Source: Candidatus Saccharimonadia bacterium (lineage in GTDB: Bacteria; Patescibacteriota; Saccharimonadia; UBA4664). Taken from it: DNA of 64,000 bases. Within the stretch, counting starts at the first letter, position 1; every line of letters starts with the position of its first letter. The notes below the pieces were generated by a model, which was given only the letters and a program-made list of their open reading frames with translations, ran no database searches and had not been told where the DNA came from. The position numbers and the translations under genes were made by a program. The stretch is from NCBI GenBank assembly GCA_038245115.1, contig JBBRSS010000001.1, forward strand, positions 25,234 through 89,233. Direction: 5' to 3'. Positions 18,623 through 38,566 of the stretch are shown one piece after another.

Positions 18623-21600
18623 GTGCGAGTAGAGCCCGCCCAACAACCTCCCGCAACCGCCCCGGCCCTCCAGGTCGCCGAGCTGAACCAACTCATACTC
18701 GAGCTTGGCTCGTCTAAAACTTCGGCCAATTATCTCGAACATGCCTGCAAAGCCATCCATCAGGCGCTCGATACACCAGTAACCGGTTTTTTGCTCGCCT
18801 CCGCTAGCACTCCACGAATTTTCGTCGAGCAGACTCTACCGGTCGAGTTGCGCGGCACCATCGAATACCCCGACAAACTAAGCCCGACTACAAAATCATC
18901 CAGATGGGACCACACTGCCTCGGTACTCGCTGCTACCAGATTAATCCCCGGGCAGCCGCAGCTGCACCTACTGGAATGGCACGGGGACGCTCTTGGAGCC
19001 CTGGTGATTTGGGGACAACCGGCTTATACGGCCGAGTTTAAAGCCAACCAAACATTCTTGCTCGAGCGAATAGCTGTCAGCATAAAATCGCTCTCTCTAG
19101 CCGAATCTGCCAATATCAATCTCTCCAAGGTTATTGCGCTAGAAAAGATCACTCAAGAGATCACTCGAACCCTAGATTTTGACAAGATATCGTCCACAGT
19201 GCTCAAACAAGCTCAGAAGTTTTTTAAAGTCGATGCCAGTGCTTTGGCCCTTGCTTCCGAAAACAATCACGAATATTACTTCGATCAATCGATAGGCCTA
19301 TCCCCGGAATACTCGTCTAAACTCCGAATTCAACCGGGTTCCAAACTTTTTAAACGCCTAATTGATGCCGACGGTCCGATTGAAATTATTTCTAACGGCA
19401 AAGCCATCCTATCGGGCGATCCCGATCTTGTCCTGCAAGAGGGCGTCAAGACCAGCCTGCTAGCGCCAATATTTTCCGAAGACAAGCTGGTTGGCGCGCT
19501 CGTACTAATCTCCAAAACCCCACGAGACTTTACCCCCGCCGAATTCGGCTTCTGCCAGACTCTCGCCAAATACGCCGCCATCGCTTTAACCAACTCAAAA
19601 CTCCATGCGAACTTGCGCAGGGCATCAAAGGAGATTGAGCAAACGCGCAACCTTATGCGCGACGGACTACTGGTCTTTGACCTTGAGCGGCGCCTGAATT
19701 ATTTCAATGCCGCTGCGGGTTCTGTGCTCGGGCTCAAAGAAGAACACCTCATGAATCCGTTTCCCTCTGAGTCTGTTCAGGGAATCCCAGGGTTAAAGCT
19801 AGATACCCAAGAACTTGAGCATACTATCGAAACCGCCATGGGAGGCCTCGTAAGCCGCACCCAGTTTTCGGTCGAGAATCATGACATTTATTACTACGAG
19901 GCTATCTATTCGCCGTACCGAGACGAAAACGGCGTCTTGACGGGGGTATTAATGAATATTCGCGACATCACCGCCATCTACCTCGAAAGAGAAAAACTTC
20001 AAGCCATCCAGAATGGCATTTCAGACGGCATCATTATCGTCGGACGAGACGGCAATACCATTGAGCACAACAATGAATGGATGCAGCTATTTAACCAGCA
20101 AGAAGAAATTATCGACCAGCCATTCTTCGAACAACTTGCCACCCGCAAAAATTTTACTTTCGACCATGATCCTATCGAACTCATCCAAGATGCCCTTAGA
20201 GGCCGCAGTTTACCGTGCTACGCGCACGACATCGAACACGGACGCCACATCCAAATCTCCGTGAACCCAATTATGGTTGGCGGGCATGTCACCGGCGCGG
20301 TCGCCACGGCCAAAGACATTACATCGCTGGTAGAAAAAACCGTCGAATCCAACGAGATGGCCGCCAAGGCCCACCGCCACCTCAGGGAGCTCTCTCAGCT
20401 CGCCGAACTCTCCGGAATAGTCGGCTTCAATGTTGCCAGCATTTATCAAAAATATCTCTCCAAAACCTCATCCTTGCTGGAATCAGCCTCAGTTAGTCTG
20501 TACCTGTATAACCCCGTCAAGCAGCTCCTCGTCCAGGATCAAGCGACCAATCCCGACCCCAGCGACACGGCTACGCTCGAACTTGGCTCAAAACATCTTG
20601 TCGCCAGAGCGTTTACTACTCGCCAATCCATATCCATCCAGGGACAAAATAATCAGAAGCAATATCGACTTGCACTGCCTATCACCCACCACTCCAAAAC
20701 CCTAGGCGTATTGCTCGTTGGACGAACCAGTGGTGCCTACGGCGAACACGAAGCCCAACTCTTGCGCATGGTCGCCACCAGGCTAGCCGTCCTCGTTGAA
20801 AATGCCAGCCTCTACCACGACGTTAACGCCCGCCGTGAGCGTTGGGAAGCGGTCTTTAGGTTTACCGAAGAGGGGATTGTGGTGTTCGATCGCTCAGGTA
20901 CCATCGTTGGGTTCAATCCTGCCTGTATCCAAATTACTCAATACAATCCCTCCGAAGCCATCGGTGAGCCCTTCAACCGCATCATCAAAACCATTGGTCC
21001 CGATACCATTAGCGGTAATAATATTGGTCCCATCGAACGCGTTCTCGAAGAAGGCGTCACCATCGCCAAGAGCGAACAGCTCATCGAGAACCGCGGCGGT
21101 ACCAGAGTTTGGACCGAAATCAGCTACTCTCCGATATTCAATGATGCCGGCCGCGTAACCTCAGGTATCGCTATTATCCGCAATACGACCAAAGACCGCG
21201 AAGTCGAAGAAATCAAAAGCGACTTCATTTCGATTGTCTCCCATGAGCTGCGAACCCCCCTTACCGCCATCAAGGGCTTCCTTTCGATGACTCTCAAACA
21301 CGATTTTGGTGCCCTCAATGAAAAACAATTCCACTACCTCAGTCGAGTGTACCAGTCAAACCAACGTATGATCGACCTCGTTGAAGACCTCATGGATGCA
21401 ACCTACATTGAATCCGGCAAAATTACCCTCACAATTGCTCCCGTCGCCCTCGACAGTGTGGTGTCTAACGTTATTGCCGAAGTTGCCGCCAAAGGTGCTG
21501 CCAGCCAAATACTCATCAAGGTCCGCCGCCGACAACGTCTTCCGCTGGTGCTTGCCGACGAAACCCGGCTGCATCAGATAATTCTCAACCTCATCGATAA

Positions 21601-21913
21601 CGCCATCAAATACTCCATGCCGGGAACCGAAGTTATCGTGAGCTTCCGAACGCAAAACGACGAGCTCATTACAACCATTTCGGATCACGGTGTTGGCATT
21701 GGTAAAAGTCAGATCGAACGCCTGTTCACCAAGTTCGGGCGCATCTTCAACCCGCTCAGTGTTCAGGCGGGCGGTACCGGCCTTGGACTCTACATCGTCA
21801 AGAACCTAGTGGAGGCGCACGACGGCCGCATTTGGGTTACCAGCCAAGAGGGCAAGGGCAGTAAATTCAACTTCAGTCTACCCATTGCTAAGCAATTACC
21901 ACTTATCGAGTAG
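18623..21913 (+). CDS. large multi-GAF/PAS sensor histidine kinase (1096 aa)
   Basis: The C-terminal HisKA H-box FISIVSHELRTPLTAIKGF, N-box DNAIKYS and G-box GTGLGLYIV are present, along with several GAF/PAS-like modules. It has a GTG start. Confidence 0.8.
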   Translation: MRVEPAQQPPATAPALQVAELNQLILELGSSKTSANYLEHACKAIHQALDTPVTGFLLASASTPRIFVEQTLPVELRGTIEYPDKLSPTTKSSRWDHTASVLAATRLIPGQPQLHLLEWHGDALGALVIWGQPAYTAEFKANQTFLLERIAVSIKSLSLAESANINLSKVIALEKITQEITRTLDFDKISSTVLKQAQKFFKVDASALALASENNHEYYFDQSIGLSPEYSSKLRIQPGSKLFKRLIDADGPIEIISNGKAILSGDPDLVLQEGVKTSLLAPIFSEDKLVGALVLISKTPRDFTPAEFGFCQTLAKYAAIALTNSKLHANLRRASKEIEQTRNLMRDGLLVFDLERRLNYFNAAAGSVLGLKEEHLMNPFPSESVQGIPGLKLDTQELEHTIETAMGGLVSRTQFSVENHDIYYYEAIYSPYRDENGVLTGVLMNIRDITAIYLEREKLQAIQNGISDGIIIVGRDGNTIEHNNEWMQLFNQQEEIIDQPFFEQLATRKNFTFDHDPIELIQDALRGRSLPCYAHDIEHGRHIQISVNPIMVGGHVTGAVATAKDITSLVEKTVESNEMAAKAHRHLRELSQLAELSGIVGFNVASIYQKYLSKTSSLLESASVSLYLYNPVKQLLVQDQATNPDPSDTATLELGSKHLVARAFTTRQSISIQGQNNQKQYRLALPITHHSKTLGVLLVGRTSGAYGEHEAQLLRMVATRLAVLVENASLYHDVNARRERWEAVFRFTEEGIVVFDRSGTIVGFNPACIQITQYNPSEAIGEPFNRIIKTIGPDTISGNNIGPIERVLEEGVTIAKSEQLIENRGGTRVWTEISYSPIFNDAGRVTSGIAIIRNTTKDREVEEIKSDFISIVSHELRTPLTAIKGFLSMTLKHDFGALNEKQFHYLSRVYQSNQRMIDLVEDLMDATYIESGKITLTIAPVALDSVVSNVIAEVAAKGAASQILIKVRRRQRLPLVLADETRLHQIILNLIDNAIKYSMPGTEVIVSFRTQNDELITTISDHGVGIGKSQIERLFTKFGRIFNPLSVQAGGTGLGLYIVKNLVEAHDGRIWVTSQEGKGSKFNFSLPIAKQLPLIE

Positions 21914-23927: not shown

Positions 23928-25304
23928 ATGGCAACTTCGCCCTCAGCTTCGACTTCACCATCAATGGAAACCCTAGTATCGCTCGCTAAGCGGCGCGGTT
24001 TTGTGTTCCAATCTTCCGAAATCTACGGCGGCCTCGCCGGTTTCTGGGATTACGGCCCTTACGGAACCGAAATGGCCAAGAACATCAGAGACGCCTGGTG
24101 GAAGCATTTTGTGTACCAGCACCCAAACATCGTGGGCCTCGACAGCACGATTATCCAAAATCCCAAGCTCTGGAAAGCCAGCGGTCACGTCGATACTTTC
24201 GTGGACCCAATGGTTGACTGTAAATTCTGCCAGCATCGTTTCCGCGCCGATCATCTCACCGACTTCGAAACCAAAGATCTCACCGAATATGACGCCGCCC
24301 TAATCAAGGTTAAATGTCCCCACTGTGGCAAAACTGGCGGCTTCACCGAGGCCAAACAATTCAATATGATGTTCAAAACCTATGTTGGCCCTGTGACCAC
24401 CGAGGACAACGTCGCATATCTGCGGCCCGAAACTGCCGGCGGCATCTTCGCCCAGTTCCAGAATGTCCTCGAAACATCCCGCCAACGTATTCCCTTTGGT
24501 ATCGCCCAGATCGGCAAAGCCTTCCGCAACGAGATTACTCCCGGCGATTTCATTTTCCGCGTGCGAGAACTCGAACAAATGGAGCTCGAGTATTTCGTTA
24601 GCCCGGATGACGGCCACACCCAACACCAAACCTGGATCAAAATCTGCCACAATTGGCTGCAAAGTATCGGCCTACCCAAGGACAAGCTCAAACTCTACGA
24701 GCACGGTCCCGACGAACGCGCCCACTACGCCGCCGCCAGTATCGATATCCAATACGACTACCCCATGGGCTTCAAGGAGCTCTATGGCGTGGCTTACCGC
24801 ACCGACTACGACCTAACCGTCCAAAGCAAGGGTAGCGGCAAAGATCTCAGCTACTTTGACGAACCCACCAAATCACGCTTCATGCCCCATGTTATTGAGC
24901 CCTCGGTTGGCGTCGGCCGACTGCTGCTAGCCCTCATGCACGCCGCCTATCACGAAGAAGACGTCGCCGGAGAAAAGCGGGTAGTCCTCAAGTTCCGTCC
25001 AGAAATTGCCCCTGTTAAGGTCGCCATTTTGCCGCTCTCGAAAAACGAAAAACTAGCCCCGATTGCCCGCTCAATATTCGATCAACTGGCCGGGTCTTAC
25101 CGCGTAGAATACGACGAGACTCAATCCATCGGCCGTCGCTACCGCCGCCAAGATGAAATCGGCACCCCGCTATGCGTCACCATCGACTTCGACACCCTCG
25201 AGGACAAAGCCGTTACCATTCGACATCGCGACACCATGAAGCAGACCCGTGTCGCCATCACCGACCTATCAACCGAAATCGATAAGCTTCTTAAGGCATT
25301 CTAA
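23928..25304 (+). CDS. glyQS: glycine--tRNA ligase, dimeric (alpha2) archaeal/eukaryal type
   Basis: SLAKRRGFVFQSSEIYGGLAGFWDYGPYG is present, and the class II motifs are present. Confidence 0.9.
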   Translation: MATSPSASTSPSMETLVSLAKRRGFVFQSSEIYGGLAGFWDYGPYGTEMAKNIRDAWWKHFVYQHPNIVGLDSTIIQNPKLWKASGHVDTFVDPMVDCKFCQHRFRADHLTDFETKDLTEYDAALIKVKCPHCGKTGGFTEAKQFNMMFKTYVGPVTTEDNVAYLRPETAGGIFAQFQNVLETSRQRIPFGIAQIGKAFRNEITPGDFIFRVRELEQMELEYFVSPDDGHTQHQTWIKICHNWLQSIGLPKDKLKLYEHGPDERAHYAAASIDIQYDYPMGFKELYGVAYRTDYDLTVQSKGSGKDLSYFDEPTKSRFMPHVIEPSVGVGRLLLALMHAAYHEEDVAGEKRVVLKFRPEIAPVKVAILPLSKNEKLAPIARSIFDQLAGSYRVEYDETQSIGRRYRRQDEIGTPLCVTIDFDTLEDKAVTIRHRDTMKQTRVAITDLSTEIDKLLKAF

Positions 25305-25308
25305 ACTC

Positions 25309-26307
25309 ATGCCAACTGTTACCGGACCAAAAGTTGTTGTCATCGGCGGAGGAACAGGCACGTTTACCATCCTCACCGCGCTCAAATTCTATGCTCGAGA
25401 CATCACCGCCATCGTCAATATGTCTGACGACGGCGGCTCCACCGGCATCCTGCGCGACGAACTGGGCGCCCTGCCGCCCGGAGACGTTCGGCAGTGCCTT
25501 GTAGCGTTGAGTGAATCAGACCAAAAAATGCGCGACCTCTTCAACTACCGCTTCGACGAAGGCACGCTCGCCGGCCACTCATTTGGCAATATCTTTCTCA
25601 CCGCTCTCGAAAAAACCACCGGCAGTTTCGCTGATGCCGTTAAAACCGCCGGCGATATTCTCAATATCTCCGGACACGTCGTACCAGTAACACTCACGGA
25701 CAGCAAACTAATCCACACTCACACCGATGGCACTACTACCACCGGCCAACACGCCATCGAAACCAGTCGGTTCAAGACCAAAGACCGTCCGGCTCTTTCA
25801 CTCGAGCCCCATGCCGAACTCAACCCCGAAGCCAAGTCCGCCATCGAAAACGCCGATATCGTCGTCATCGCTCCGGGAAACCTCTACGCGTCGCTCGCGC
25901 CCACATTACTCGTCGGCGGCATGAGCGAGGCTTTAGCTGCCGCCAAAGCCAAAGTCATCTATGTCTGTAATCTCGTCACCAAACCCGGCCAAACCGACGG
26001 TTTCAAGGTGCACGATTACGTCAGCGAAATCGAACGTTTCATGGGCACGAAACTGGTCGATTACGTTATTTACAACCAGCGCCAACCTACCAAAGCGCTG
26101 CTCAAGAAATATGCCCAAGCAGGGGAGTACGCCGTCGAATTCGACTCCAGCGCTGCTGCTGCCGCCCACTACGAAACCATCGGTGAAAGCCTGCTGTCAG
26201 ATACCATCCCCAAGCTCAAACCCTCCGAGAGGCTCATTCCACGCACCCTGATTCGCCACGATTCTGACACCGTTGCCCGATTAATAATGAGGATATACTT
26301 CAGCTAA
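25309..26307 (+). CDS. YvcK/CofD-like family protein (gluconeogenesis factor-like, UPF0052)
   Basis: VVVIGGGTGTFTIL, SDDGGSTGILRDELGALPPGDVRQCL are present. The start was chosen at ATG 25309. Confidence 0.75.
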   Translation: MPTVTGPKVVVIGGGTGTFTILTALKFYARDITAIVNMSDDGGSTGILRDELGALPPGDVRQCLVALSESDQKMRDLFNYRFDEGTLAGHSFGNIFLTALEKTTGSFADAVKTAGDILNISGHVVPVTLTDSKLIHTHTDGTTTTGQHAIETSRFKTKDRPALSLEPHAELNPEAKSAIENADIVVIAPGNLYASLAPTLLVGGMSEALAAAKAKVIYVCNLVTKPGQTDGFKVHDYVSEIERFMGTKLVDYVIYNQRQPTKALLKKYAQAGEYAVEFDSSAAAAAHYETIGESLLSDTIPKLKPSERLIPRTLIRHDSDTVARLIMRIYFS

Positions 26308-27249: not shown

Positions 27250-27278
27250 TTGACACTCCAGATGAGATGTTTTATAAT
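27250..27278 (+). promoter_or_regulatory. consensus sigma70-type promoter (TTGACA-17-TATAAT), leaderless configuration
   Basis: A perfect TTGACA -35 hexamer, a 17-nt spacer and a perfect TATAAT -10 hexamer are present. The -10 ends 8 nt before ATG 27287 and there is no SD. Confidence 0.6.
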
Positions 27279-27286
27279 TTTTAACA

Positions 27287-28321
27287 ATGATTAACGCTAT
27301 GACAGCCAAAACCCCCACAACCTACAATTACAAATCCGCCGTCGAACAAATCCTTAAGGAATTGCGACGCGATCGTGATCGCCAAATTATCGCTCGGCGG
27401 TTTGGCTTTGGCATGCCGCGCCGCCAAACTCTCGAAAAGATCGGTAACGATTTCGAAATTACGCGCGAACGTGTCCGCCAAATCGAAAAAGCTGCCATCG
27501 CCAAAATGCGCGCCAGCAACTCCGCCGACATCGTAACCGGCGGAGAAACTTTGCGAGCTATTGCCGCTGATCAAGGGGGGATTCTGCCAATTGCCGATGT
27601 CGCAGAAATGCTAAGTGCTCCCGAGGCCGACATTCCCTATCTTGTATTTCTAGCCCGACTTGCCGGCAGCGTTGAGTTAATTGAAGACGACGATGATGTG
27701 CGCCAAGCCATTGGCCTCGCCGGTATTTTTTCTCGCCCCCAAGTCAACCTACTGCTCGCCGAAATCATTAAATCCGTCAAAGACTACTCCAAGCCCATCA
27801 CTCTCGCCAAGCTCAAGGTCAAGCTGCCGTCCGAACTGGATGTTATTACCCTTGAGCAACTTATGCGTATTTCAAAAAAATTAGCCTACTTTGACGGCAA
27901 ATGGGGTCTTATCACCTGGCCCGAGGTCAACCCCAAGAGCATCCGCGACAAAACTTATCTGGTACTATCACGCCACGGGCGCCCGCTGCACTTTTCCGAA
28001 ATCGCCAAGCACGTTCGAAGCCTCGGCGCTACCAAACGCAACGTCACCATTCAAGCCGTCCACAATGAGCTCATCAAAGACCAGCGTTTCATCCTTATCG
28101 GTCGCGGCATCTACGCTCTCGCCGAATGGGGTTATACCCCCGGTACAGTTGCCGAAATTATCGCCAGTGTCTTGCGCGAAGAGCAGCCGTTGCACAAGGA
28201 TGAAATCGTTCGTCGCGTGCTTATGAAGCGCCAAGTTAAAACAACCACCATCATTTTGAATCTCCAAGAAAAAGACCAATTCCAGCGTACCGCCAAAGCC
28301 ACTTACAAGCTTAAGGATTAA
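27287..28321 (+). CDS. DNA-binding protein: N-terminal sigma-70 region 4-like HTH followed by two HARE-HTH-like winged-helix repeats
   Basis: A region 4.2-like segment (IARRFGFGMPRRQTLEKIGNDFEITRERVRQIEKAAIAKMR) is followed by two repeats ending FDGKWGLITW and QRFILIGRGIYALAEWGY, the pattern of HARE-HTH/RNAP delta N-domain. Confidence 0.55.
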   Translation: MINAMTAKTPTTYNYKSAVEQILKELRRDRDRQIIARRFGFGMPRRQTLEKIGNDFEITRERVRQIEKAAIAKMRASNSADIVTGGETLRAIAADQGGILPIADVAEMLSAPEADIPYLVFLARLAGSVELIEDDDDVRQAIGLAGIFSRPQVNLLLAEIIKSVKDYSKPITLAKLKVKLPSELDVITLEQLMRISKKLAYFDGKWGLITWPEVNPKSIRDKTYLVLSRHGRPLHFSEIAKHVRSLGATKRNVTIQAVHNELIKDQRFILIGRGIYALAEWGYTPGTVAEIIASVLREEQPLHKDEIVRRVLMKRQVKTTTIILNLQEKDQFQRTAKATYKLKD

Positions 28322-28396
28322 GGCATAAAATAGGGACAGAACGCGCGCGGGGGTAGTTCAAGGAGGGCTTGAAACATTCAGACAATTACAACTATT

Positions 28397-31393
28397 TTGA
28401 CACCGATCACGGCCATCTTTCAGATTATTGGCCTGATCTTATTTAAGTTTTACGGCTGGGTCGTTGTGGTAGCCGTACTCGGTTATTTGTTTTATCAAAA
28501 CCAGCGCAAGGTCAAATGGATCGGATCCACCGAGAACATCCTCCTGCTCATCGAAGTCCCCAAAGACAACGAAAAGAAGGAGTTGTCCGCCGAACAAATG
28601 TTTGCCTCGCTCCACGGCATCCTGCGTCCCAAATCCGAACTCCAGCGCGACGGGTCGATCCAGGAACACATCTCGTTCGAAATTGTCTCACGTCTTAATT
28701 CAATCCAGTTTTATGTCTGGACCCCCAAACATCTCAAGGACTTCGTCGAGAGCCAAGTCTACGCCCAATACCCGACCGTCCAGATCAAAGAAGGGCCGTC
28801 TGACTACTCCGCCATCGACATCGCTGGCCGAACCATCTACGGAACCGAACTCGGGCTCACCAAAAATTCGATGATGCCCATCAAAACCTTCGCCTCATTC
28901 GAGGTCGACCCCCTCGCCGGCATCACGGGCGTTTTAGCGAAACTCGAACAAACCGGCGAAGAAGTCTGGATTCAAATTCTAGCCCGGCCCATCGATGATT
29001 CCTGGCAAAACTTGGGCAAATCCTATATCGACGGCATCAAAGGGGGGAGTAAGGGACCTCTGGACATTTTCAGCCTCGATGGGCTACTCCAATTGCCGAT
29101 TTATATTATCACCACCTTCTTCACAGCCCTATTTACCCCGCCCAGCGCAACCGCCGGCAAAACCCCGGATAAAAAAGAGATCAGTACTGGCGACCAAACC
29201 GTCATAAAGGCCGTTGAAGAGAAAATCGTCAAGCTCGGCTATGAAGTCAAAATACGCATCGCCTATTTGGGGCCCGATGAAGCCTCGGGTAGACAACGGC
29301 TCCAAGCTATCGTGGGCGGGTTCAAACAATTCAATACAACCAACCTTAATGGCTTCACCAACGCCAAAATGTACAATTCAGCTGAGTTTATCGGCGACTA
29401 CCAGGCCCGGTTGTTCTTCGACTCCGGCTACATCCTCAATATCGAAGAGCTGGCGTCGCTATACCATCTGCCCCATAAGTCCGTTGAAACCCCCAACATG
29501 GTCTGGACGACGGCCAAAACCAGCGAGCCGCCCTCTAACATCCCCGTCGAAGGAATAGGGGAGCCTGGCGAACTCAGCCTCTTCGGCCTCACCAACTTCC
29601 GCGGCCGCCACCTCAAGTTTGGTATCAACCGCCGCGATCGAGGGCGCCACATGTACATCATTGGCCAGACCGGCGCCGGCAAATCATTCCTCTTGCAGCT
29701 GCTCACTTTGTCCGACATCTATCATGACCAAGGCTTCGCCATTGTCGACCCCCACGGCGACTTCGCCACCGACATCATGAAATACATCCCCGAGCACCGC
29801 CTCAACGATGTCGTCTATCTCAACCCGGCCGACCGTGACTTCCCGATGGCCTTTAACCCCATGGAAATCACCGACCCGGCCATGAAAGACCACATCAGCT
29901 CCGAACTCGTGGGTGTACTCAAGCGCATGTTCGAATCCTGGGGGCCGCGTTTGGAATACATTCTGCGCTATACCATTTTGGCCCTCCTCGACCACCCCGA
30001 TTCGACCATGCTCGACATTACCCGCATGCTCAACGAAAAAGACTTCCGCAAGCAGGTCATCAATAGCATTCAGGACCCGGTTGTTAAAAGCTTCTGGATT
30101 ACAGAATTCGCCTCCTGGAACGAAAAATTTGCTTCCGAGGCTGTCGCGCCTGTGCTCAACAAGGTCGGAGCATTCGTGGCCAACCCGCTGGTGCGTAACA
30201 TCATCGGGCAAAAAAAGAGCGCCTTCAATATTCGCGAAATCATGGACGAAGGCAAAATCCTCCTCGTAAACCTCAGCCGCGGTCAGGTCGGTGAAGATAA
30301 CGCCGCCATCCTAGGCGCCCTAATGGTTACCAAGATTCAGCTGGCCGCTATGAGCCGAGCCGACATGCCGCTCGAACAACGCCGCCCCTTCTATCTCTAC
30401 GTCGACGAATTCCAGAACTTCGCCACCGACTCGTTCGCGGTTATTCTCTCAGAAGCCCGCAAGTACGGCCTCAACCTCACCGTGGCCAACCAGTACGTCT
30501 CCCAAATGCCCGAGGTCGTGCGCGACGCCGTCTTTGGTAACGTTGGTACTATGGTAAGTTTCCGCATTGGACCGGGCGATTCTACCGTGCTCGGCCGCTA
30601 CTTTGAGCCCGTCTTTGAAGCCATTGACCTCACCAAACTCCACAACCAAAATATCTTCATCTCCATGATTATCGACGGCGAAAAAGCCGCCCCATTCTCG
30701 GCCTCAACCCTACGTATGCCCGATCCGGAAAACGATCAAACCGCCCGCATTATTTCGATATCCCGCGAACGCTTTGCCTCTCACCGAGAAGAAGTCGAGG
30801 TTGATATTCGTTCTCGTACAGCCGGTGGCAATGATCAAGGCGCTCGCGCCGTCAATACTTCCGCCGGTGATCAAAAACCGAACAAAGAACTACTTAACGT
30901 CCTCAAGAACCCCGACCGTCCCCGCAACGAGCCCAGGCGCGACGACCGTCGAGCAGGGGAGTCGGGGGGCGGGGGACGCGGCCCTGGGCGCGACGATAAC
31001 CGCCGCCCACACGAATCGCAGGGCGCCAGCGCACCATACAGCGGGGGAGGCGACCGCCGCGAGCGTTCAAACTCGAGCAGGGGAGCGAGCGCACCGTATC
31101 GGCCCAGTGCGGGAGCCAGTGCCCCCTACAAGCCTCGTCCCGAGAACCAGCAGCCGGCACCAGTCCAGCAGGCCCCTGCCAGCACCCCATATCGTCCCGA
31201 GGAGCACCGTGACGCCGCTCCAACCCCAACTCACATGCAAACCCCTCACCACCAAACGCAAACGCAACCGCCCGCCACACCAGCCACTCGCGCCCCGGAG
31301 CCAACTGCACCCACCCCAGCCGCCTCTACCAGCCACCCGTCCACCCAAGCATCCCATGCTGTTGAACCAGGCGAAGCTATCAGCCTGCGCTAA
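28397..31393 (+). CDS. membrane-anchored FtsK/HerA-superfamily P-loop ATPase, VirB4/VirD4 (type IV secretion)-like, with long disordered C-terminal tail
   Basis: There is an N-terminal TM segment. Walker A is IIGQTGAGKS, a DPHGD (DPKGE-like) motif is present, and Walker B is LYVDEFQNF. The C-terminal ~200 aa are low-complexity Pro/Ala/Thr/Arg-rich with three GASAPY repeats. The start is uncertain (see finding on ATT). Confidence 0.55.
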   Translation: MTPITAIFQIIGLILFKFYGWVVVVAVLGYLFYQNQRKVKWIGSTENILLLIEVPKDNEKKELSAEQMFASLHGILRPKSELQRDGSIQEHISFEIVSRLNSIQFYVWTPKHLKDFVESQVYAQYPTVQIKEGPSDYSAIDIAGRTIYGTELGLTKNSMMPIKTFASFEVDPLAGITGVLAKLEQTGEEVWIQILARPIDDSWQNLGKSYIDGIKGGSKGPLDIFSLDGLLQLPIYIITTFFTALFTPPSATAGKTPDKKEISTGDQTVIKAVEEKIVKLGYEVKIRIAYLGPDEASGRQRLQAIVGGFKQFNTTNLNGFTNAKMYNSAEFIGDYQARLFFDSGYILNIEELASLYHLPHKSVETPNMVWTTAKTSEPPSNIPVEGIGEPGELSLFGLTNFRGRHLKFGINRRDRGRHMYIIGQTGAGKSFLLQLLTLSDIYHDQGFAIVDPHGDFATDIMKYIPEHRLNDVVYLNPADRDFPMAFNPMEITDPAMKDHISSELVGVLKRMFESWGPRLEYILRYTILALLDHPDSTMLDITRMLNEKDFRKQVINSIQDPVVKSFWITEFASWNEKFASEAVAPVLNKVGAFVANPLVRNIIGQKKSAFNIREIMDEGKILLVNLSRGQVGEDNAAILGALMVTKIQLAAMSRADMPLEQRRPFYLYVDEFQNFATDSFAVILSEARKYGLNLTVANQYVSQMPEVVRDAVFGNVGTMVSFRIGPGDSTVLGRYFEPVFEAIDLTKLHNQNIFISMIIDGEKAAPFSASTLRMPDPENDQTARIISISRERFASHREEVEVDIRSRTAGGNDQGARAVNTSAGDQKPNKELLNVLKNPDRPRNEPRRDDRRAGESGGGGRGPGRDDNRRPHESQGASAPYSGGGDRRERSNSSRGASAPYRPSAGASAPYKPRPENQQPAPVQQAPASTPYRPEEHRDAAPTPTHMQTPHHQTQTQPPATPATRAPEPTAPTPAASTSHPSTQASHAVEPGEAISLR
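30780..31390 (+). repeat. low-complexity repeat-containing coding tail (GASAPY x3, Arg/Gly-rich, Pro/Thr/Gln-rich)
   Basis: Short direct repeats are visible in the translation of the ATPase 3' end, and there is purine/pyrimidine compositional skew. Confidence 0.6.
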
Positions 31394-32064
31394 GCTGCGC
31401 TGTTATCGTCGAGGATTAACGATTGATAGTTAGCAGGATCTGGATACCTGCTATAATGAGCCAAAATGTTCCTGAATTCGACGAGACCCGTAACTCTTAG
31501 TCGTGGGATAAGTCTCATCTTACCCATATGCATTGCTGCATATTCAATATCATCTTCAGATAGCTCCAAGTTCGCGCATACGAAATAAAGGGGGACTGAT
31601 TTTGGAAAATCCAGGTATTTTGGAATTTTGATATTTACGTTGCTTTGTAGGGTACGAATGGTATTGGGGTAAAAGATATCAATACCGATATTACCTTCCG
31701 GCGTGAACACCATAAAATCAAGCCTACTGCCTTGTCGCCCGTAGCGCTTCTCCGTATGAACATACAGCTCCCCAAACTGATGGATGAGTTCAATCTCAAG
31801 CTCTTGTTCGCTTTTTAGCCCCCGGATTGAGCTCTTGGTTGCACTAGCCGACCTATTTTCGCCACTGCCGAAATCAATATCCTCGTAGCCAAGGTCCTGA
31901 CGAAGCCTTTTTAGCCCACCAAATCCCCGTTGAATCTGTCGCGATGAAGGCAAAAAATTTGTATTGTCAATTTCGTGGGCAGTAGGAAGTCTCCCCTCTT
32001 CTAAAATAAATTTATCAAAGCCAGCCTTAATGTTCGCTAACGTCCAAATTGTTTCGAAAGTCAT
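31390..32064 (-). CDS. orphan hypothetical protein in AT-rich island (possible nuclease-like fold)
   Basis: The 224-aa ORF lies in a region clearly more AT-rich than its flanks. It has no confident motif; RLDFMVF...GIDIF...NIKIPK is weakly reminiscent of PD-(D/E)xK. It is convergent with the ATPase gene and overlaps it by 4 nt. Confidence 0.4.
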   Translation of the reverse strand: MTFETIWTLANIKAGFDKFILEEGRLPTAHEIDNTNFLPSSRQIQRGFGGLKRLRQDLGYEDIDFGSGENRSASATKSSIRGLKSEQELEIELIHQFGELYVHTEKRYGRQGSRLDFMVFTPEGNIGIDIFYPNTIRTLQSNVNIKIPKYLDFPKSVPLYFVCANLELSEDDIEYAAMHMGKMRLIPRLRVTGLVEFRNILAHYSRYPDPANYQSLILDDNSAA

Positions 32065-32433: not shown

Positions 32434-33237
32434 CTATTTATAATATGCCTTACCGGCAATGCGCAGGTCGATGTATTCCGCCGGAGTGCGCTTCTGAGCC
32501 ACTAGCAGCCGCTGTACGGCCTTCAAGTCCGCTATCTCCTCGCTGGTACTTCTATTGGTATCAAACAGCAACCGATACCCCTTGTTAGTCTGAGCCGACA
32601 GATCAAAGGTTGTATCTTTAATGTCTAATCGTGTCACTCCAATACCGCTTTGCGCCAACTCCGCCACAATCTGACTCGCAAATTCTACGAAGTGGACCGA
32701 AGCTACCCGTTGCCCAACCTGAACCGGCAAATTACTGCCATCATAAACCACCGGGAATATCACTGGCCCCGCTGCCACACCAATGACGGTGCCGTCCTTA
32801 TCGAGGACGTAAGTTTGATTACCGGTACTCCAACCCAAGCTAGCCTGCTTGAGTGTAGAAGTTACAACAATAGTATGAAACCACTTACGCTTCACTGTCA
32901 CTGTTCGTAATGACGGATCGGTTTGTTTTAATTTTGCAATAAAATCATCCGAACTAAAAGTTACCAGATTCCCCCACCACAGATTGCCCGCCACCAATTT
33001 TCTGGATGCGGACTCTATTTCTGCCATGCGCGCCGGGGCGCTTACCGTTACCGTACGTAAGGCAAACAACTGCACTATCCCCCACCCCGCCAATAGTAGT
33101 AATACGAAAATTATCAGCCCTCTTCGCTGCAGGACACTCAGCCGCGGACGCCTTGGTCCCCTCCTTGGTCCCCTGCTCAATGGCTGTACCCGGCCGTACA
33201 CCGGACGGCCAGCCGACCTGACTATCCGCTGACTCAC
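32434..33237 (-). CDS. ftsQ: cell division protein FtsQ/DivIB
   Basis: A basic N-terminus and a single TM segment are followed by a POTRA-like domain. It sits downstream of murG in the dcw cluster. Confidence 0.75.
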   Translation of the reverse strand: MSQRIVRSAGRPVYGRVQPLSRGPRRGPRRPRLSVLQRRGLIIFVLLLLAGWGIVQLFALRTVTVSAPARMAEIESASRKLVAGNLWWGNLVTFSSDDFIAKLKQTDPSLRTVTVKRKWFHTIVVTSTLKQASLGWSTGNQTYVLDKDGTVIGVAAGPVIFPVVYDGSNLPVQVGQRVASVHFVEFASQIVAELAQSGIGVTRLDIKDTTFDLSAQTNKGYRLLFDTNRSTSEEIADLKAVQRLLVAQKRTPAEYIDLRIAGKAYYK

Positions 33238-34406
33238 TCAGTCTCCTCCGTGTTCGGTTTTTGTACAGGTTCACCCAATGCCAAGATAATTTTTCCTAAA
33301 TCTTCGGCTGCATTGGGCCGACCGAACACTTTTATAGCCGCCACCATATCCGCCTGTACAGTCTCATCACCCAGGACATAATCTATCTCGTCCGCAAATG
33401 AATCAGCCGTTAGCTTGGCTCCGTCCAACACCCGTACCGCACCCTGGCGCGACAACACGCGCGCATTCTCAACTTGATGCCCAGCCATCTCGTAATTGGG
33501 TATCAAAATCGTTGGCTTACCTAGTACGGCACTGTCATTAATAGTATTTACCCCTGCCCGACCGATCACCAAATCTGCCGCCGCCAGTGCCAACCCCATG
33601 TCGCCCATCAAGAACCCATACGGATGATAGCGGTCCGCCAACTTATATTTTGGCCGTCGGCTCAACTCAAACATTATTCGCGCAATTTCACCTTCGCCGG
33701 TCTGGTGAATAATCTGATACTTCTTTATCAACCGATCGAGACTTCCCAGAACAACGTTATTGATTTGTGCCGCCCCCTGTGAGCCGCCGGTAATCAAAAT
33801 TACCGGCACCGCCTCGTCTAGCCCAAAATGCGCAATTCCCTCCAGTCGATGTGCAGTCAAAATATCGGCCCGCACCGGGCTGCCAACATATACCAATTTG
33901 GATGGGTCGAACATGCGATAGCTCTTCACCGGAAAGCCCACGGCAATCTTATTTGCCCACCGACTCAGAATTTTATTAGTCAGCCCGGGCGTTGCATCAG
34001 ACTCGTGAATCACAAAAGGAATATTGAGCATTTTAGCCGCAATACCAACCGGTAGACACACATATCCGCCCTTCAAAAACACCACATCAGGCTTAAAGGT
34101 CCGCAGTATCCGCATTGCCTGCCCCACGCCCTGAACGGTTCGTAAGGTATCGCGCGCATTTGGCCCCAAGGTCGACAAATTGAAGATTTTGGCGAAGCCG
34201 GAGTCAAAGTGGTTTCGGCGAAATTTCCCCGCCGAAATTGGCGCGAACGTAAGTCCCGCACCCGCCACAATCTTTGCCTCCATACCGCCGGCCTGCCCTA
34301 TATAGAGCAGTTCGCCAGTACTATCGAGCAACTTTAACGCGTCGCTGGTTGCCAGCGTTGGCAAAATATGCCCCGCTGTTCCCCCGCCGCTCACGACTAC
34401 TCGCAT
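33234..34406 (-). CDS. murG: MurG, UDP-GlcNAc:lipid I GlcNAc transferase
   Basis: MRVVVSGGGTAGHILP is the N-terminus. GT28 family. Confidence 0.9.
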   Translation of the reverse strand: MRVVVSGGGTAGHILPTLATSDALKLLDSTGELLYIGQAGGMEAKIVAGAGLTFAPISAGKFRRNHFDSGFAKIFNLSTLGPNARDTLRTVQGVGQAMRILRTFKPDVVFLKGGYVCLPVGIAAKMLNIPFVIHESDATPGLTNKILSRWANKIAVGFPVKSYRMFDPSKLVYVGSPVRADILTAHRLEGIAHFGLDEAVPVILITGGSQGAAQINNVVLGSLDRLIKKYQIIHQTGEGEIARIMFELSRRPKYKLADRYHPYGFLMGDMGLALAAADLVIGRAGVNTINDSAVLGKPTILIPNYEMAGHQVENARVLSRQGAVRVLDGAKLTADSFADEIDYVLGDETVQADMVAAIKVFGRPNAAEDLGKIILALGEPVQKPNTEETE

Positions 34407-35553
34407 CGCTGACCTCTCTTACCGTGTACTTCGATATGTTAAGCAAAATTCCGACTCCGAATAGCGATACTAGCAGACTGGTGCCTCCGTATGATATAAA
34501 CGGCAGCGGAATGCCCGTGAGTGGAACTAGCGACAGCATTGCTCCAATATTAATCATAGCCTGAAACAGCAGCCATAGGGATATCCCGGTAGCCACCAGT
34601 CGCGAAAACATATCCGGTGCGGCTTTTGCCACCTTCAATCCGCGATATACCAGTATTCCAAATAATCCGATAATTGCCAGCGACCCAACGATACCGAACT
34701 CCTCGGCAATAATCGCGTAAATTGAATCATTAGCGGCCTCGGGCAAGTACCCGTACACCTGGATACTATGCCCCAAACCCAACCCCAGTATTCCTCCCGA
34801 CCCAACGCCCAACAGTGCCTGGCACACATGCAGCGACGCATCCAGCGCATACTTAGGATCATTACACCTAGGGTCAAAAAACGTCGTTAGCCTGCTCAAA
34901 CGATGTGGAAATAGCGCAATCGCCGCCCATCCTGCCATGGCGCTTCCGGCGAACAATAAGCCCAAGTGGCTCAGCTTCATCCCGGCAGCATAGAACATCC
35001 CCATCGTGGCCAGGGCCAGCACCATCATCGTGCCCATATCTCGCTGCAGCACCACAATCACGAAACACGCCGTACCTACCATTATCGCAAACGGCACAAA
35101 ACCATCCCAAAACGACCGGACATCACTCTGACGTTTCTCGAACCACAACGCCAAATACAAAATAAGCGTAATCTTGAGTATCTCAGCGGGCTGGACTGAT
35201 ATTGGGCCTACTTGAATCCAGCGAGTTGCCCCATGGGAGCTCTGCGCCAGTCCGGGTATCAATAAAGCCACCAGGCAAAGCACTGCTACTATCAACAACC
35301 GAGGCGCCCATTTACGCCAAGCTGTATACGGTATAGCAGTCGCAACCACCCATCCCACCACACCGAGCGCCACATACAATATTTGATTCATAAAATAATA
35401 GTTACGATCCGCACTTCCGGTCAATTTGTGGCTCAGGATAGGGCTGATTGAATACATCATTACTAGCCCCACAGCCAACAATATTGTCACGGCCAGCGCA
35501 ATCATATAATCAATGCGATGAGCGCGAACCGGACTCTCTCCAGCGTTTTTCAT
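34321..35553 (-). CDS. ftsW: SEDS-family peptidoglycan polymerase FtsW
   Basis: Ten-TM SEDS protein. It lies in the dcw cluster between mraY and murG. Confidence 0.85.
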   Translation of the reverse strand: MKNAGESPVRAHRIDYMIALAVTILLAVGLVMMYSISPILSHKLTGSADRNYYFMNQILYVALGVVGWVVATAIPYTAWRKWAPRLLIVAVLCLVALLIPGLAQSSHGATRWIQVGPISVQPAEILKITLILYLALWFEKRQSDVRSFWDGFVPFAIMVGTACFVIVVLQRDMGTMMVLALATMGMFYAAGMKLSHLGLLFAGSAMAGWAAIALFPHRLSRLTTFFDPRCNDPKYALDASLHVCQALLGVGSGGILGLGLGHSIQVYGYLPEAANDSIYAIIAEEFGIVGSLAIIGLFGILVYRGLKVAKAAPDMFSRLVATGISLWLLFQAMINIGAMLSLVPLTGIPLPFISYGGTSLLVSLFGVGILLNISKYTVREVSDASSRERRGNSGAYFANAGNQRRVKVAR

Positions 35554-36605
35554 CAGAGCTTGTTACCTAATAGGGCCAAAACCAATCCCAAGGCTCCCAC
35601 TACCTGGCCGATCACCCACAACCGCATCGTCACTTTGGTCTCCGGCCAACCGATGGCCTCGAGGTGATGGTGCAATGGCGCCGACAAAAATATTTTGCGG
35701 TGCCAAAATTTCTTCGAAATAATCTGCACCACGCTCGATCCGGCCTCCACCACAAACACCGCCGCAATAATCGGCAAAACAAAGACAGTATTCGTCAACA
35801 TTGCTATCACCCCAAGCGTCGTGCCAAAGGCGAATGAGCCACTATCACCCATGAAAAACCGCGCCGGATAGATCGAGAACCAAGTATAAGTCAGCATGGC
35901 GCCCACAATGGTGGCGCAGAACCCGGCAATACCAAAGTTTCCCTGGAAGTAGCCAATTACTGCGTAGACCGCAAAGGCCGTCGAAAGCAGTCCCCCACTC
36001 AACCCATCGAGGCCGTCGGTAATGTTTACCGCGTTAGCCGTACTCACTACCACCGCAATAAACAACGGCACAATCAACCACCCAATACTAAAATCACCCA
36101 CTGCCGGCACGTGAATCAAGCTGTAGCCCAATTTGAGCGAGAAATACATCCCCCCCACTACTGCAATACCAAAGATGAGCGCAAATTTAATCTTCCCGCG
36201 CATTCCGGCGATGCCCAGTCCGTCGCTGCGAATATTCAGATAATCATCGAATAAGCCCACCAGCCCTGCCGCAATCAAAGAAAATAATGGCAGATAAGTC
36301 TGACTGCGCGACAGGTTAAATAGCAATGTCACCGTTGCCACGGCAATTATCAGCACTGCACCGCCCATCGTGGGAATATTGCGCTTATGCTTGGCCGCGT
36401 GCAATTTGGTATATATTGCGGCCTTTTCGCCCGTAATTGCATCCTCGCGCGGCTGCTTCCACAGCCTGTACTTAAAGCCCAACCGCGTATAAACCGGAAC
36501 CAACAGCATCGATACTATAAAGGCCCCAAAGGCCAACGAGCCAATCCGAGACAGGGAAGTAATTTCCTGCGCGTGTATAAAGTTAATTGTTGGTATAAAT
36601 GCCAT
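35553..36605 (-). CDS. mraY: phospho-N-acetylmuramoyl-pentapeptide transferase
   Basis: Polytopic membrane protein with MraY conserved Asp-containing segments. Confidence 0.9.
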   Translation of the reverse strand: MAFIPTINFIHAQEITSLSRIGSLAFGAFIVSMLLVPVYTRLGFKYRLWKQPREDAITGEKAAIYTKLHAAKHKRNIPTMGGAVLIIAVATVTLLFNLSRSQTYLPLFSLIAAGLVGLFDDYLNIRSDGLGIAGMRGKIKFALIFGIAVVGGMYFSLKLGYSLIHVPAVGDFSIGWLIVPLFIAVVVSTANAVNITDGLDGLSGGLLSTAFAVYAVIGYFQGNFGIAGFCATIVGAMLTYTWFSIYPARFFMGDSGSFAFGTTLGVIAMLTNTVFVLPIIAAVFVVEAGSSVVQIISKKFWHRKIFLSAPLHHHLEAIGWPETKVTMRLWVIGQVVGALGLVLALLGNKL

Positions 36606-36663
36606 AATTTTGCTTATTTAAGTTTAACATATCTGGTAATTTTAACCGTTTACTAAAAAAATC

Positions 36664-38424
36664 TCATGATGACGGAGGTATCCCATAATATTTAAACAGC
36701 CACCGGCAGACATCACCAAACACTGGTACTGTTGTGGTCTCGGCATACCCCGACACGCCTGGCTCATTAATCCGCACCATCACCACAAATTTTGGGTTTT
36801 CCGCCGGCGCGAAACCCACGAATGATCCGATATTCGCACCGTCAATATAGCCCTTGCCGTCTGGTCTAGGTATCTGCGCCGTTCCGGTTTTACCGGCAAT
36901 CTTATATCCCGGGTTCATCCCCCCGGCAATATAGCCAGACCCGTGCTGGACCACCACCTGAAGCATAGCGTTAAGATCTTTGGCCGCCGCGGGGCTAATT
37001 ACATGATCAGCCAAAATCTTCGACTGCTTTTGTTGCACCGTACCGTCAGGCATCATCGTCCCGTCAACCATCCGAGCCTGATACAGCCTTCCCCCATTTG
37101 CCACCGCGGCCATAGCCGCCACCATTTGAATCATCGTCACGCTCATACCCTGGCCAAAAGCCATGTTCGCATAAGTGACATTATTTCCAGCATTATTGCT
37201 TGGCTGAATTATTGAGCCCGCCGCTTCGTTAGACTGCTCAATTCCCGTCGGCACGCCAAACCCGAAGTGCTTAAGAAAGTACCCGTATAGCGTCTGTTTA
37301 CCCGCCAGGTTAAACCCGTTAGGGTCTCCGCCCAGCATCCGCAAAACGTACATTATCCCCGTATTGAGTGAATCGCGCAGCACGACCGTCATCGTCTTGC
37401 CCTTGCCCGACTTATCGCCCGCCGCATTGCACACCTGACGGTCATCAACCTTGTAGCAACCAGGGTCGTCATATGTGGAGTCGGGCTTAACCTTTCCCTG
37501 ATCCAGACCGGCGGCCATTGTAAACGCCTTCATGCCCGACCCAGGCTCGAATTGGCTCGACACTGCCTCATTCACAAACACACTAAAATCCGTAACCGAC
37601 CCATAGTTACCTGGATCGAATGTTGGATAATTCGCCATCGCCCGCACAGCCCCATTAACGGGATCCATTACCACGATACTGCCAGATTTAGCCTTAACCT
37701 TCTTAATCTGATCGGCTAACTCTTGCTCCGCCATTGCCTGAACATTTCGATCTATCGTCAGTACATAACTCAACCCATCTACCGGCGGTTTCACCACATT
37801 TTTGGCAGTGGCTATCGGGATGCCATAAGCGTCCGTTTTAGCCGCAAACTGCCCCGAAACGCCGGCCAAAGCTTTGTCCAAATAGCCCTCAATACCATAC
37901 TGACCTTGACCATCGAAGTTAACGAACCCCACTGCCTGCGCCGCCAACTGACCTTCCGGATAACTACGATAATCCCGGTCGACCAAAGCCACTCCAGCCA
38001 ACTTCAAAGCCTTAACTTTATCAGCCGTAACCGTTGGCACCCTCTCGGCCAATACGGCATATTCAATCCCTTTAGTCAGCTTGGACAAATATATCTTCGG
38101 ATCCCCGCCCAGTACACCGGCCAACTTTGCCGCCGCATCATTTTTATCCGCAATATACCTAGGGTCCGCATACACCAGCTTTAATGTTTGGTTGAGAGCT
38201 ATCGGCGAAGTCCCGTCACCATCATGCACATACAATTCTCCGCGTTTTGCGGGCATCTCGTATTTTCGGGTATGTTCATTTGACGCCTGCACAATATACC
38301 GGCCATGCTGAAAAATCTGCAGATAAACCAATCTTCCGGCCAAAATAAATCCCGACAATACCAAAATCGCCGTAAACGCGCTTATGCGTCGGCGCTGCCG
38401 TATTGCGTCATTGGAAAAACCCAT
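36664..38424 (-). CDS. ftsI: class B penicillin-binding protein (FtsI-type transpeptidase)
   Basis: The SxxK motif (SGSIVVMDP...), KTGTAQ and the dimerisation domain are present. The start was chosen at ATG 38424 (MGFSNDAIRQRRR followed by a TM segment). The listed ORF begins 84 nt upstream. Confidence 0.85.
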   Translation of the reverse strand: MGFSNDAIRQRRRISAFTAILVLSGFILAGRLVYLQIFQHGRYIVQASNEHTRKYEMPAKRGELYVHDGDGTSPIALNQTLKLVYADPRYIADKNDAAAKLAGVLGGDPKIYLSKLTKGIEYAVLAERVPTVTADKVKALKLAGVALVDRDYRSYPEGQLAAQAVGFVNFDGQGQYGIEGYLDKALAGVSGQFAAKTDAYGIPIATAKNVVKPPVDGLSYVLTIDRNVQAMAEQELADQIKKVKAKSGSIVVMDPVNGAVRAMANYPTFDPGNYGSVTDFSVFVNEAVSSQFEPGSGMKAFTMAAGLDQGKVKPDSTYDDPGCYKVDDRQVCNAAGDKSGKGKTMTVVLRDSLNTGIMYVLRMLGGDPNGFNLAGKQTLYGYFLKHFGFGVPTGIEQSNEAAGSIIQPSNNAGNNVTYANMAFGQGMSVTMIQMVAAMAAVANGGRLYQARMVDGTMMPDGTVQQKQSKILADHVISPAAAKDLNAMLQVVVQHGSGYIAGGMNPGYKIAGKTGTAQIPRPDGKGYIDGANIGSFVGFAPAENPKFVVMVRINEPGVSGYAETTTVPVFGDVCRWLFKYYGIPPSS

Positions 38425-38566
38425 TACCCTATTCCTACTGTCCCCTCTTGAGCATCCGACCATAGCTCCTGCAAATGGTGCAGCGATATATCGCAACACA
38501 ATACACACGACCTACCGGCCAATGTAGCCAAAATAATTAGAGATGGAACGTGCATTATCTTGTACG

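Follow-up and report, generated by a model that had tools for sequence, protein, structure and literature searches.

A Patescibacteria protein family that joins sigma-70 region 4 to four winged helices, is encoded beside a membrane DUF8128 gene, and is essential in one cultured species

What does region 4 of sigma-70 do in a protein that contains no other part of a sigma factor? The question is raised by a gene in a 64,000-nucleotide (nt) stretch of DNA from Candidatus Saccharimonadia bacterium (assembly GCA_038245115.1, contig JBBRSS010000001.1, positions 25,234 to 89,233 of the forward strand), which we refer to as the window. Here, we find that the 344-amino-acid (aa) product of this gene consists of region 4 and four winged helices, that proteins of this kind are distributed throughout the Patescibacteria, that the gene is paired with one encoding a membrane DUF8128 protein (with or without an ATPase), and that it is essential in one cultured species. 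These four points we regard as established. Judging from sequence and comparative evidence, the protein is best explained as an essential, Patescibacteria-specific nucleic-acid-binding protein. We tentatively favor the idea of an essential factor that reads -35-type DNA sites and acts globally in transcription or chromosome biology.

A protein 100% identical to the window protein is present at NCBI (P0001). Pfam places Sigma70_r4 (PF04545) at aa 29–76 (E=5e-12, 45.5 bits, cut-off 24.1), bearing out an original prediction, made from the DNA sequence, that the protein begins with sigma-70 region 4. HARE-HTH (PF05066) is found on the full protein at E=5e-10 (40.1 bits, cut-off 25.9) in two stretches, the better of which covers aa 220–281. 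Thus, both of the similarities proposed earlier lie above the Pfam thresholds when profile searches are made. Both of the wing motifs quoted earlier are also present in the protein (FDGKWGLITW, aa 202–211; RFILIGRGIYALAEWGY, aa 267–283), and the F..G.WGL/Y.L wing motif, together with a score above the gathering threshold, assigns the protein to the HARE-HTH superfamily. In an AlphaFold model (AF2), built from an alignment of 120 family sequences with 31–91% identity, region 4 is followed by four winged helices (wH1–wH4), each with the usual helix-strand-helix-helix-hairpin topology (mean predicted local distance difference test score, pLDDT, 92.9; predicted TM-score, pTM, 0.79). When a shallow alignment was used instead (30 sequences, >=67% identity), aa 216–344 were modeled at pLDDT <50. 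The gene and its domains are as follows:

27287..28321, + strand: coding sequence for 344 aa, with sigma region 4 and four winged helices (open reading frame (ORF), Pfam, AF2)
27317..27523, + strand: sigma-70 region 4 domain, aa 11–79 (PF04545, PDB sequence matches, Foldseek)
27524..27730, + strand: wH1, aa 80–148, acidic, the least conserved domain (AF2 topology H-b-H-H-b-b; hhalign 83% to wH2)
27731..27922, + strand: wH2, aa 149–212, with FDGKWGLITW at its end (AF2; hhalign 69% to wH3, 88% to wH4)
27923..28138, + strand: wH3, aa 213–284, a delta-like HARE-HTH, the most conserved domain (PF05066; TIGR04567 below cut-off)
28139..28318, + strand: wH4, aa 285–344 (AF2; weak HARE-HTH; hhalign 69–88% to wH2/wH3)

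The winged-helix part departs from the original prediction, which counted two HARE-HTH repeats. The HARE-HTH call itself stands, but there are four winged helices in the model, and when the domains are scanned singly against Pfam, wH3 alone passes the HARE-HTH threshold (32.7 bits, given as aa 214–281 or 218–283). The second stretch, at aa 287–322, is wH4 and is weak (16.2 bits; DUF3320 scores 21.6 bits on the same domain). Neither wH1 nor wH2 scanned in this way has any Pfam match, so the FDGKWGL domain, named earlier as one of the two repeats, is not a HARE-HTH by this measure, although hhalign and the model indicate that it is a related winged helix. Of the six possible pairs, four (wH1-wH2, wH2-wH3, wH2-wH4, wH3-wH4) align at 69–88% hhalign probability, which argues for a chain of related repeats; wH1 aligns to wH3 and to wH4 at only about 2–3%. 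Across the family, region 4, wH3 and wH4 are basic and are the most conserved domains, with a column identity of 0.68 in wH3. The net charge of wH4 is +4; that of the variable wH1 is -10 in the window protein and -3.2 on average in the family. For aa 80–344, the best multi-domain Foldseek matches are the tandem winged-helix arrays of SelB (WH1-4), Dcc1 and UFL1/DDRGK1, but with TM-scores of about 0.2, 11–14% identity and unrelated functions, the likeness is one of architecture only. The domain parse given for the homolog of Southlakia epibionticum, a "tri-helical" N-terminal part followed by three "winged" domains (Wang et al. 2023, Table S2, PMC10633639), independently agrees with the modeled architecture.

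Region 4 of the window protein closely resembles that of the primary sigma factors (e.g., PDB 1KU7, 3T72 and 7KUF). All matches in a PDB sequence search are to region 4 of RpoD, SigA or RpoS, and Foldseek superimposes the N-terminal domain on SigA region 4 chains with a root-mean-square deviation of 1.0–1.9 Å, at 33–43% identity in the structure alignment and 38–42% in the sequence alignment. The structure model and fold search, checks of the kind suggested earlier, recover both region 4 and the winged helices. In an alignment of the window protein, Saccharibacteria RpoD and E. coli sigma-70, the residues R554, R562-F-G, T572-L-E, G577, F580, T583-R-E-R-x-R-Q-I-E591, K597 and R599 (E. coli numbering) are identical in all three. 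We take R554, R562, T572-L-E and T583-R-E-R-x-R-Q589 of sigma-70 to be the positions that contact the -35 element, as reportedly seen in the Taq SigA region 4/DNA structure of Campbell and coworkers from 2002. Every one of these is kept in the window protein, and most are invariant over the 120 family members, in all of which T48, L49, G53 and I58-Q65 (window protein numbering) are unchanged. R60, E61, R64 and Q65 of the window protein correspond to R584, E585, R588 and Q589 of sigma-70. K593 and R596, which in sigma-70 belong to a basic activator-contact patch, are replaced by alanines. From these residues, the domain looks functional as a -35 reader.

Unlike in RpoD and SigA, region 4 is the sole sigma part of the window protein and lies at the N-terminus rather than the C-terminus. 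Sigma regions 1.2, 2 (PF04542) and 3 have no match at E<=1 in Pfam or NCBIfam, and the model places winged helices where these regions would lie. Lacking them, the protein cannot melt promoters, and the earlier statement that it is not a sigma factor holds. The NCBIfam sigma models match over only their last 60–75 positions, all far below their cut-offs; the RpoD model, for example, reaches 56.7 bits where 555 would be needed. The best of these scores, 63.8 bits against a cut-off of 800, comes from the model for MzaA, the sigma factor of the MZA anti-phage system, and covers only positions 634–709 of 726. We rejected MzaA as an identity, as the match is to region 4 only (NCBIfam, PADLOC) and the gene context is one of housekeeping. 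A defense-system or phage origin was rejected more generally, since the PADLOC and PHROGs matches are confined to region 4, again in a housekeeping context. A viral fold search (BFVD) gave only sigma-4 and generic winged-helix matches.

The other known protein that comes to mind is the delta subunit of RNA polymerase (RNAP). Like the N-domain of Bacilli delta (RpoE, TIGR04567), which docks on RNAP in Bacillus (PMC7749165), wH3 is a HARE-HTH, and it aligns to positions 4–70 of the delta model. Here, however, the domain sits at aa 218–281 rather than at the N-terminus, in one polypeptide with three further winged helices and sigma region 4, and it scores 27.8 bits where the cut-off is 42. The acidic disordered C-terminal region of delta is absent; in its place, the window protein ends in a folded basic winged helix. 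Current annotations are divided: NCBI uses "sigma factor-like helix-turn-helix DNA-binding protein", JGI often uses "RNAP delta subunit", and PROKKA called the Southlakia gene "RpoS". Matches of region 4 to the RpoD/RpoS models, and of the HARE-HTH to the delta model, speak for the latter two names. Nonetheless, with no regions 1.2, 2 or 3, sigma models matching partially and far under their cut-offs, a sub-threshold delta score, no acidic C-terminus, and a length twice that of delta, the idea that the protein is an alternative sigma factor or a delta subunit is almost certainly wrong. The lack of sigma regions 2 and 3 and of an acidic tail indicates that it is neither.

The family is large. 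Word-indexed protein searches return >7900 matches each; all of the listed ones carry PF04545 and PF05066, and the named sources are Saccharimonadia, Patescibacteria, Parcubacteria, Staskawiczbacteria and similar groups. The family spans at least 583 clusters (50% identity, E<1e-30), nearly all of 320–400 aa. The window protein belongs to this family by full-length homology, by the Sigma70_r4 plus HARE-HTH architecture, and by a length of about 330–390 aa. In a scan of species-representative genomes, all 22 of the full-length loci among the matches listed are from Patescibacteria or unclassified metagenome-assembled genomes, and the other 58 listed matches are region 4 of ordinary sigma factors. 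Besides its presence throughout the phylum, the family shows near-invariance over 145 C-terminal residues. It is catalogued yet uncharacterized, and the protein belongs to no characterized family, as the original prediction would have it. HARE-HTH was not found together with Patescibacteria in the literature searched, and as far as that literature shows, this architecture and its conserved partner are apparently undescribed.

Experimental data on the family come from Southlakia epibionticum. There, SEML1_0294 (1050 bp) encodes a protein with Sigma70_r4 at aa 27–72 and HARE-HTH at aa 225–283 (Wang et al. 2023, PMC10633639, Table S1). The gene adjoins the VirD4-like SEML1_0293, and TopA lies two genes off (PMC10633639), which matches the gene order in Saccharibacteria loci of our analysis. 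By its length, domain coordinates and gene order, SEML1_0294 is the presumed ortholog of the window gene. Transposon sequencing (Tn-seq) detected 24 insertions in SEML1_0294 in input DNA and only 1, 1 and 2 after selection; it was called essential at all three time points (ES/ES/ES) and classed in a core, Patescibacteria-enriched family (PMC10633639, Table S1). SEML1_0293, the ATPase gene, was called non-essential (NE), even though its reads drop from 5817 to 1372 (same table). The main text of Wang et al. is silent on SEML1_0294. The same study names one true sigma factor in Southlakia, RpoD, and lists a canonical FtsK with a gamma domain, as well as ParAB (PMC10633639, Tables S1 and S2).

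These data bear directly on the earlier suggestion that the protein is the regulator of the downstream ATPase. A conserved gene order, seen in 27 of 31 loci (see below), agrees with that suggestion, but the presumed ortholog is essential and the ATPase is not, which means that such regulation cannot be the whole story. The essential job of the protein does not need the ATPase, and this argues against a mere operon regulator.

The gene is also distinguished by its promoter, which comprises two elements:

27250..27255, + strand: -35 hexamer TTGACA (motif match)
27273..27278, + strand: -10 hexamer TATAAT, 17-nt spacer, 8 nt 5′ of the ATG (motif match)

The perfect TTGACA-17-TATAAT and the 8-nt distance from the -10 box to the ATG are exactly as first described. 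On both strands of the window, this is the sole match of >=11/12, and a single match with <=1 mismatch compares with 0.18 expected from shuffles. By appearance, no sigma-A promoter in the window is stronger. For comparison, we assembled a set of 31 loci, consisting of the window and 30 relatives (L-numbered). A 12/12 promoter precedes the gene in 10 of these (the window, L001, L007, L022 and L081-L086), and the remaining loci mostly have 10–11/12 matches, with none below 9/12. In the window and its close relatives L081, L082, L083 and L085 (67–86% protein identity; referred to here as the window clade), the first in-frame ATG comes 7–11 nt after the -10 box. This distance is likewise short in L003 and L016; elsewhere it is 19–83 nt, and several of these loci have a GGAG-like motif 5′ of the ATG. 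The predicted transcript start would leave a leader of 0–3 nt in the window. Thus, by sequence comparison, the very strong promoter is a trait of the family, whereas the leaderless layout, proposed earlier for the window gene, extends to the window clade but is mainly confined to it. In that clade, leaderless mRNA would make expression independent of a Shine-Dalgarno site. The downstream gene is preceded by an AAGGAGG motif, which indicates that the organism does use Shine-Dalgarno sites and that the missing site is a trait of this gene. A second in-frame ATG at 27299 (Met5) is conserved, and initiation there would leave a 14-nt leader, also with no Shine-Dalgarno site. Another promoter-like site, ATGACA-18-TACAAT (10/12), lies inside the gene at 27299-27328 (+); it starts at the second in-frame ATG, overlapping the Met5 codon, and is probably due to chance.

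One way to account for this promoter is that the protein is a simple autorepressor, controlling its own operon through the perfect -35 box. In its favor are a perfect, conserved box, a domain suited to reading a -35, and the position of the gene at the head of its operon. Even so, we consider this explanation quite unlikely, because essentiality would not be expected of a protein dedicated to regulating a dispensable ATPase, and because 145 near-invariant C-terminal residues and phylum-wide presence would be unusual for a local repressor.

What lies downstream provides a second set of clues. The next gene can be divided into three parts:

28397..29566, + strand: N-terminal module, aa 1–390, hydrophobic membrane segment plus DUF8128 of ~380 aa (tblastn, ORF clustering; PF26449 listed on homologs)
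29567..30826, + strand: VirD4/TrwB/HerA-type P-loop ATPase module, aa 391–810 (Pfam TrwB_AAD_bind, E=1e-11; DUF87)
30827..31393, + strand: low-complexity tail rich in P/Q/R/G/S, aa 811–998, plus stop codon (translation; homolog alignments end at ~aa 800–828; GC content 0.61–0.65)

In the window, as in 26 of the 30 other loci, the sigma-4/winged-helix gene is followed directly on its own strand by a DUF8128 gene. Only 3–5 nt separate the pair in close relatives L082, L083 and L085, which suggests that they form an operon there. Saccharibacteria carry the DUF8128 module and the ATPase in one fused protein; in several loci from other groups, DUF8128 is a gene of its own. In L009, L010, L013, L015, L022, L087 and L088 the two are adjacent separate genes. 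In L014, L018, L020 and L021, an MltG-like gene comes next after DUF8128 instead, and the locus contains no ATPase. The constant neighbor is therefore not the ATPase itself but the membrane DUF8128 module, and the order sigma-4/winged-helix, DUF8128, MltG hints at a connection to the cell envelope. Three loci (L003, L008, L011) keep the gene with no DUF8128 or ATPase neighbor; L006 is a fourth in which DUF8128 is missing, but no more than about 1.8 kb of sequence follows the gene there. Searching PDB sequences with a profile made from the DUF8128 module gave no match, and DUF8128 is not mentioned in the literature searched. The ATPase module gives partial NCBIfam matches to conjugative coupling proteins. 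No relaxase or type IV secretion system genes are present in the neighborhood. In a survey of the phylum, only 148 of 5,713 VirD4-like proteins in 2,918 genomes were found near virB4; its authors suggest that VirD4-like proteins have been co-opted for another function, and do not mention the sigma-4/winged-helix neighbor (bioRxiv 10.1101/2025.01.22.634366).

This conserved order keeps two further explanations alive. In one, the protein is a translocase adaptor, that is, the DNA-recognition subunit of a DUF8128 and VirD4-like machine, selecting or loading DNA for transport. Several translocases of the FtsK/VirD4 type have DNA-binding partners of this sort, including the FtsK gamma domain, the C-terminal winged helix of Streptomyces TraB, and TraM/TrwA. 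As in those systems, there is a genetic link between a DNA-binding module and a membrane P-loop translocase from the FtsK/HerA/VirD4 superfamily, and tandem winged helices are typical DNA readers. The same-strand adjacency across Patescibacteria, the very short gap in the close relatives, and the survey's picture of coupling-protein homologs mostly far from virB4 and suspected of co-option all fit as well. In contrast to the FtsK, TraB and TraM/TrwA cases, however, the window protein is a separate protein with a sigma-4 domain, and it is essential where the ATPase is dispensable, which weakens this model. In addition, several loci have DUF8128 and then an MltG-like gene with no ATPase; L003, L008 and L011 have neither neighbor; and Southlakia already possesses a canonical FtsK that includes a gamma domain. 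We regard an adaptor role as possible but doubtful. The related notion that the ATPase replaces FtsK is weakened by the presence of that canonical FtsK, along with ParAB, in Southlakia.

In the other explanation, the DUF8128 protein would hold the factor at the membrane, much as an anti-sigma factor holds an extracytoplasmic function (ECF) sigma factor, and free it in response to an envelope signal. A sigma-like gene followed by a membrane-protein gene is the order of sigma/anti-sigma operons, the Tn-seq results agree with an essential factor whose partner is dispensable, and the vicinity often includes MltG or genes for division and the cell wall. But DUF8128 has no resemblance to known anti-sigma domains (Pfam; profile versus PDB), the protein has no region 2 and so cannot itself direct initiation, and the interaction is only hypothetical. 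We judge such membrane control to be unlikely.

How, then, might an essential reader of -35-type sites work? We envision that the sigma-4 domain reads TTGACA-like -35 hexamers, and that the basic, highly conserved wH3 and wH4 add contacts to DNA or RNAP. In organisms with a single sigma factor, the protein would then work globally, at promoter sites or in association with RNAP, and it would probably exert feedback through the perfect -35 box of its own gene. The neighboring membrane module may use or sequester the protein, but would not be needed for its essential job. A bolder version of this idea, which we think somewhat unlikely, is that the protein is an essential and hitherto unrecognized component of Patescibacteria RNAP, either an accessory subunit or a general transcription factor. 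The free-standing region 4 would read the -35, a delta-like winged helix would dock on the enzyme, and the protein would physically connect promoters or transcribing polymerase with the membrane DUF8128/VirD4-like machine. If so, it would represent a new class of bacterial transcription component, confined to a very large and poorly studied radiation.

Several observations weigh against a global reader of -35-type sites. The strongly conserved gene order with a membrane protein points to an envelope-linked rather than a purely transcriptional role. With 19 sites versus 25 +/- 5 expected, the window shows no enrichment of TTGACA, no RNAP gene lies near the window gene, and wH1 is acidic and variable, not basic and conserved. 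DNA binding, -35 specificity, contact with RNAP and interaction with DUF8128 are all predicted properties. As for essentiality, we infer orthology with SEML1_0294 from length, domain coordinates and gene order rather than from an alignment, and the Tn-seq phenotype could in principle stem from transposons mis-expressing the downstream gene.

The question is nonetheless a worthwhile one. The genomes of Patescibacteria are tiny and encode few regulators, and Southlakia, at least, has just one sigma factor. Southlakia has 116 Patescibacteria-enriched genes, 73 of them essential (Wang et al., PMC10633639), and this is one of the few in the essential group with recognizable nucleic-acid-binding domains, which should make a direct test of its role feasible. 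Strains amenable to genetics are available (Southlakia epibionticum, Nanosynbacter lyticus). A free-standing, essential region 4 tied to a membrane ATPase module fits no characterized component of transcription, segregation or conjugation, and solving its function could show how these bacteria organize transcription or DNA handling. It would also correct the widespread mis-annotation as "RpoS" or "RNAP delta subunit".

The wider surroundings of the gene can be described briefly. Upstream in the window are RecO, glycyl-tRNA synthetase (GlyRS), a CofD-like gene and a nucleotidyl transferase, a housekeeping context. Upstream neighbors vary between loci, with TopA in some lineages and SecDF in others. 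On the other side, a division and cell-wall cluster on the minus strand (32434-38508), encoding FtsQ-like, MurG, FtsW, MraY and penicillin-binding protein (PBP) transpeptidase functions, converges on the gene pair; FtsQ/MurG neighbors recur in L003, L004, L008 and L081-L085. The MltG-like genes of L014, L018, L020 and L021 encode MltG/YceG-like endolytic transglycosylases and lie ~2.4-3.4 kb past the start of the homolog.

Some features of the VirD4-like gene and its flanks may also be recorded. The first canonical start codon of this gene is a TTG at 28397, 30 nt past the strong AAGGAGG (28360-28366), while an in-frame ATT at 28376 has an ideal 9-nt spacing from that motif. The gene may truly start at the rare ATT codon, or the AAGGAGG may have another purpose; in the alignment, the L082 and L083 homologs begin a few residues further upstream. 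The ATPase tail of ~190 aa (30827-31390) is rich in P, Q, R, G, S and A and has repeated GASAPY(S/R/K) motifs. It is lineage-specific, as homolog alignments stop near aa 800–828. Between the ATPase gene and FtsQ is a 224-aa ORF (31390-32064, minus strand) of low GC content (0.41-0.44) that has no Pfam or PHROGs match; only about 400-470 bp occupy the corresponding gap in L081-L083, and the ORF looks like a lineage-specific insertion or orphan gene. Further upstream, the GlyRS (23928-25304) and CofD-like (25249-26307) ORFs as listed overlap by 56 nt. They abut in relatives, and the GTG start of the CofD-like ORF was probably called too far upstream. Finally, the window encodes a GAF-PAS-PAS histidine kinase of 1096 aa (18623-21913, plus strand), which is noteworthy in a reduced genome; in relatives L082 and L085, this gene adjoins a response-regulator gene 5′ of RecO.

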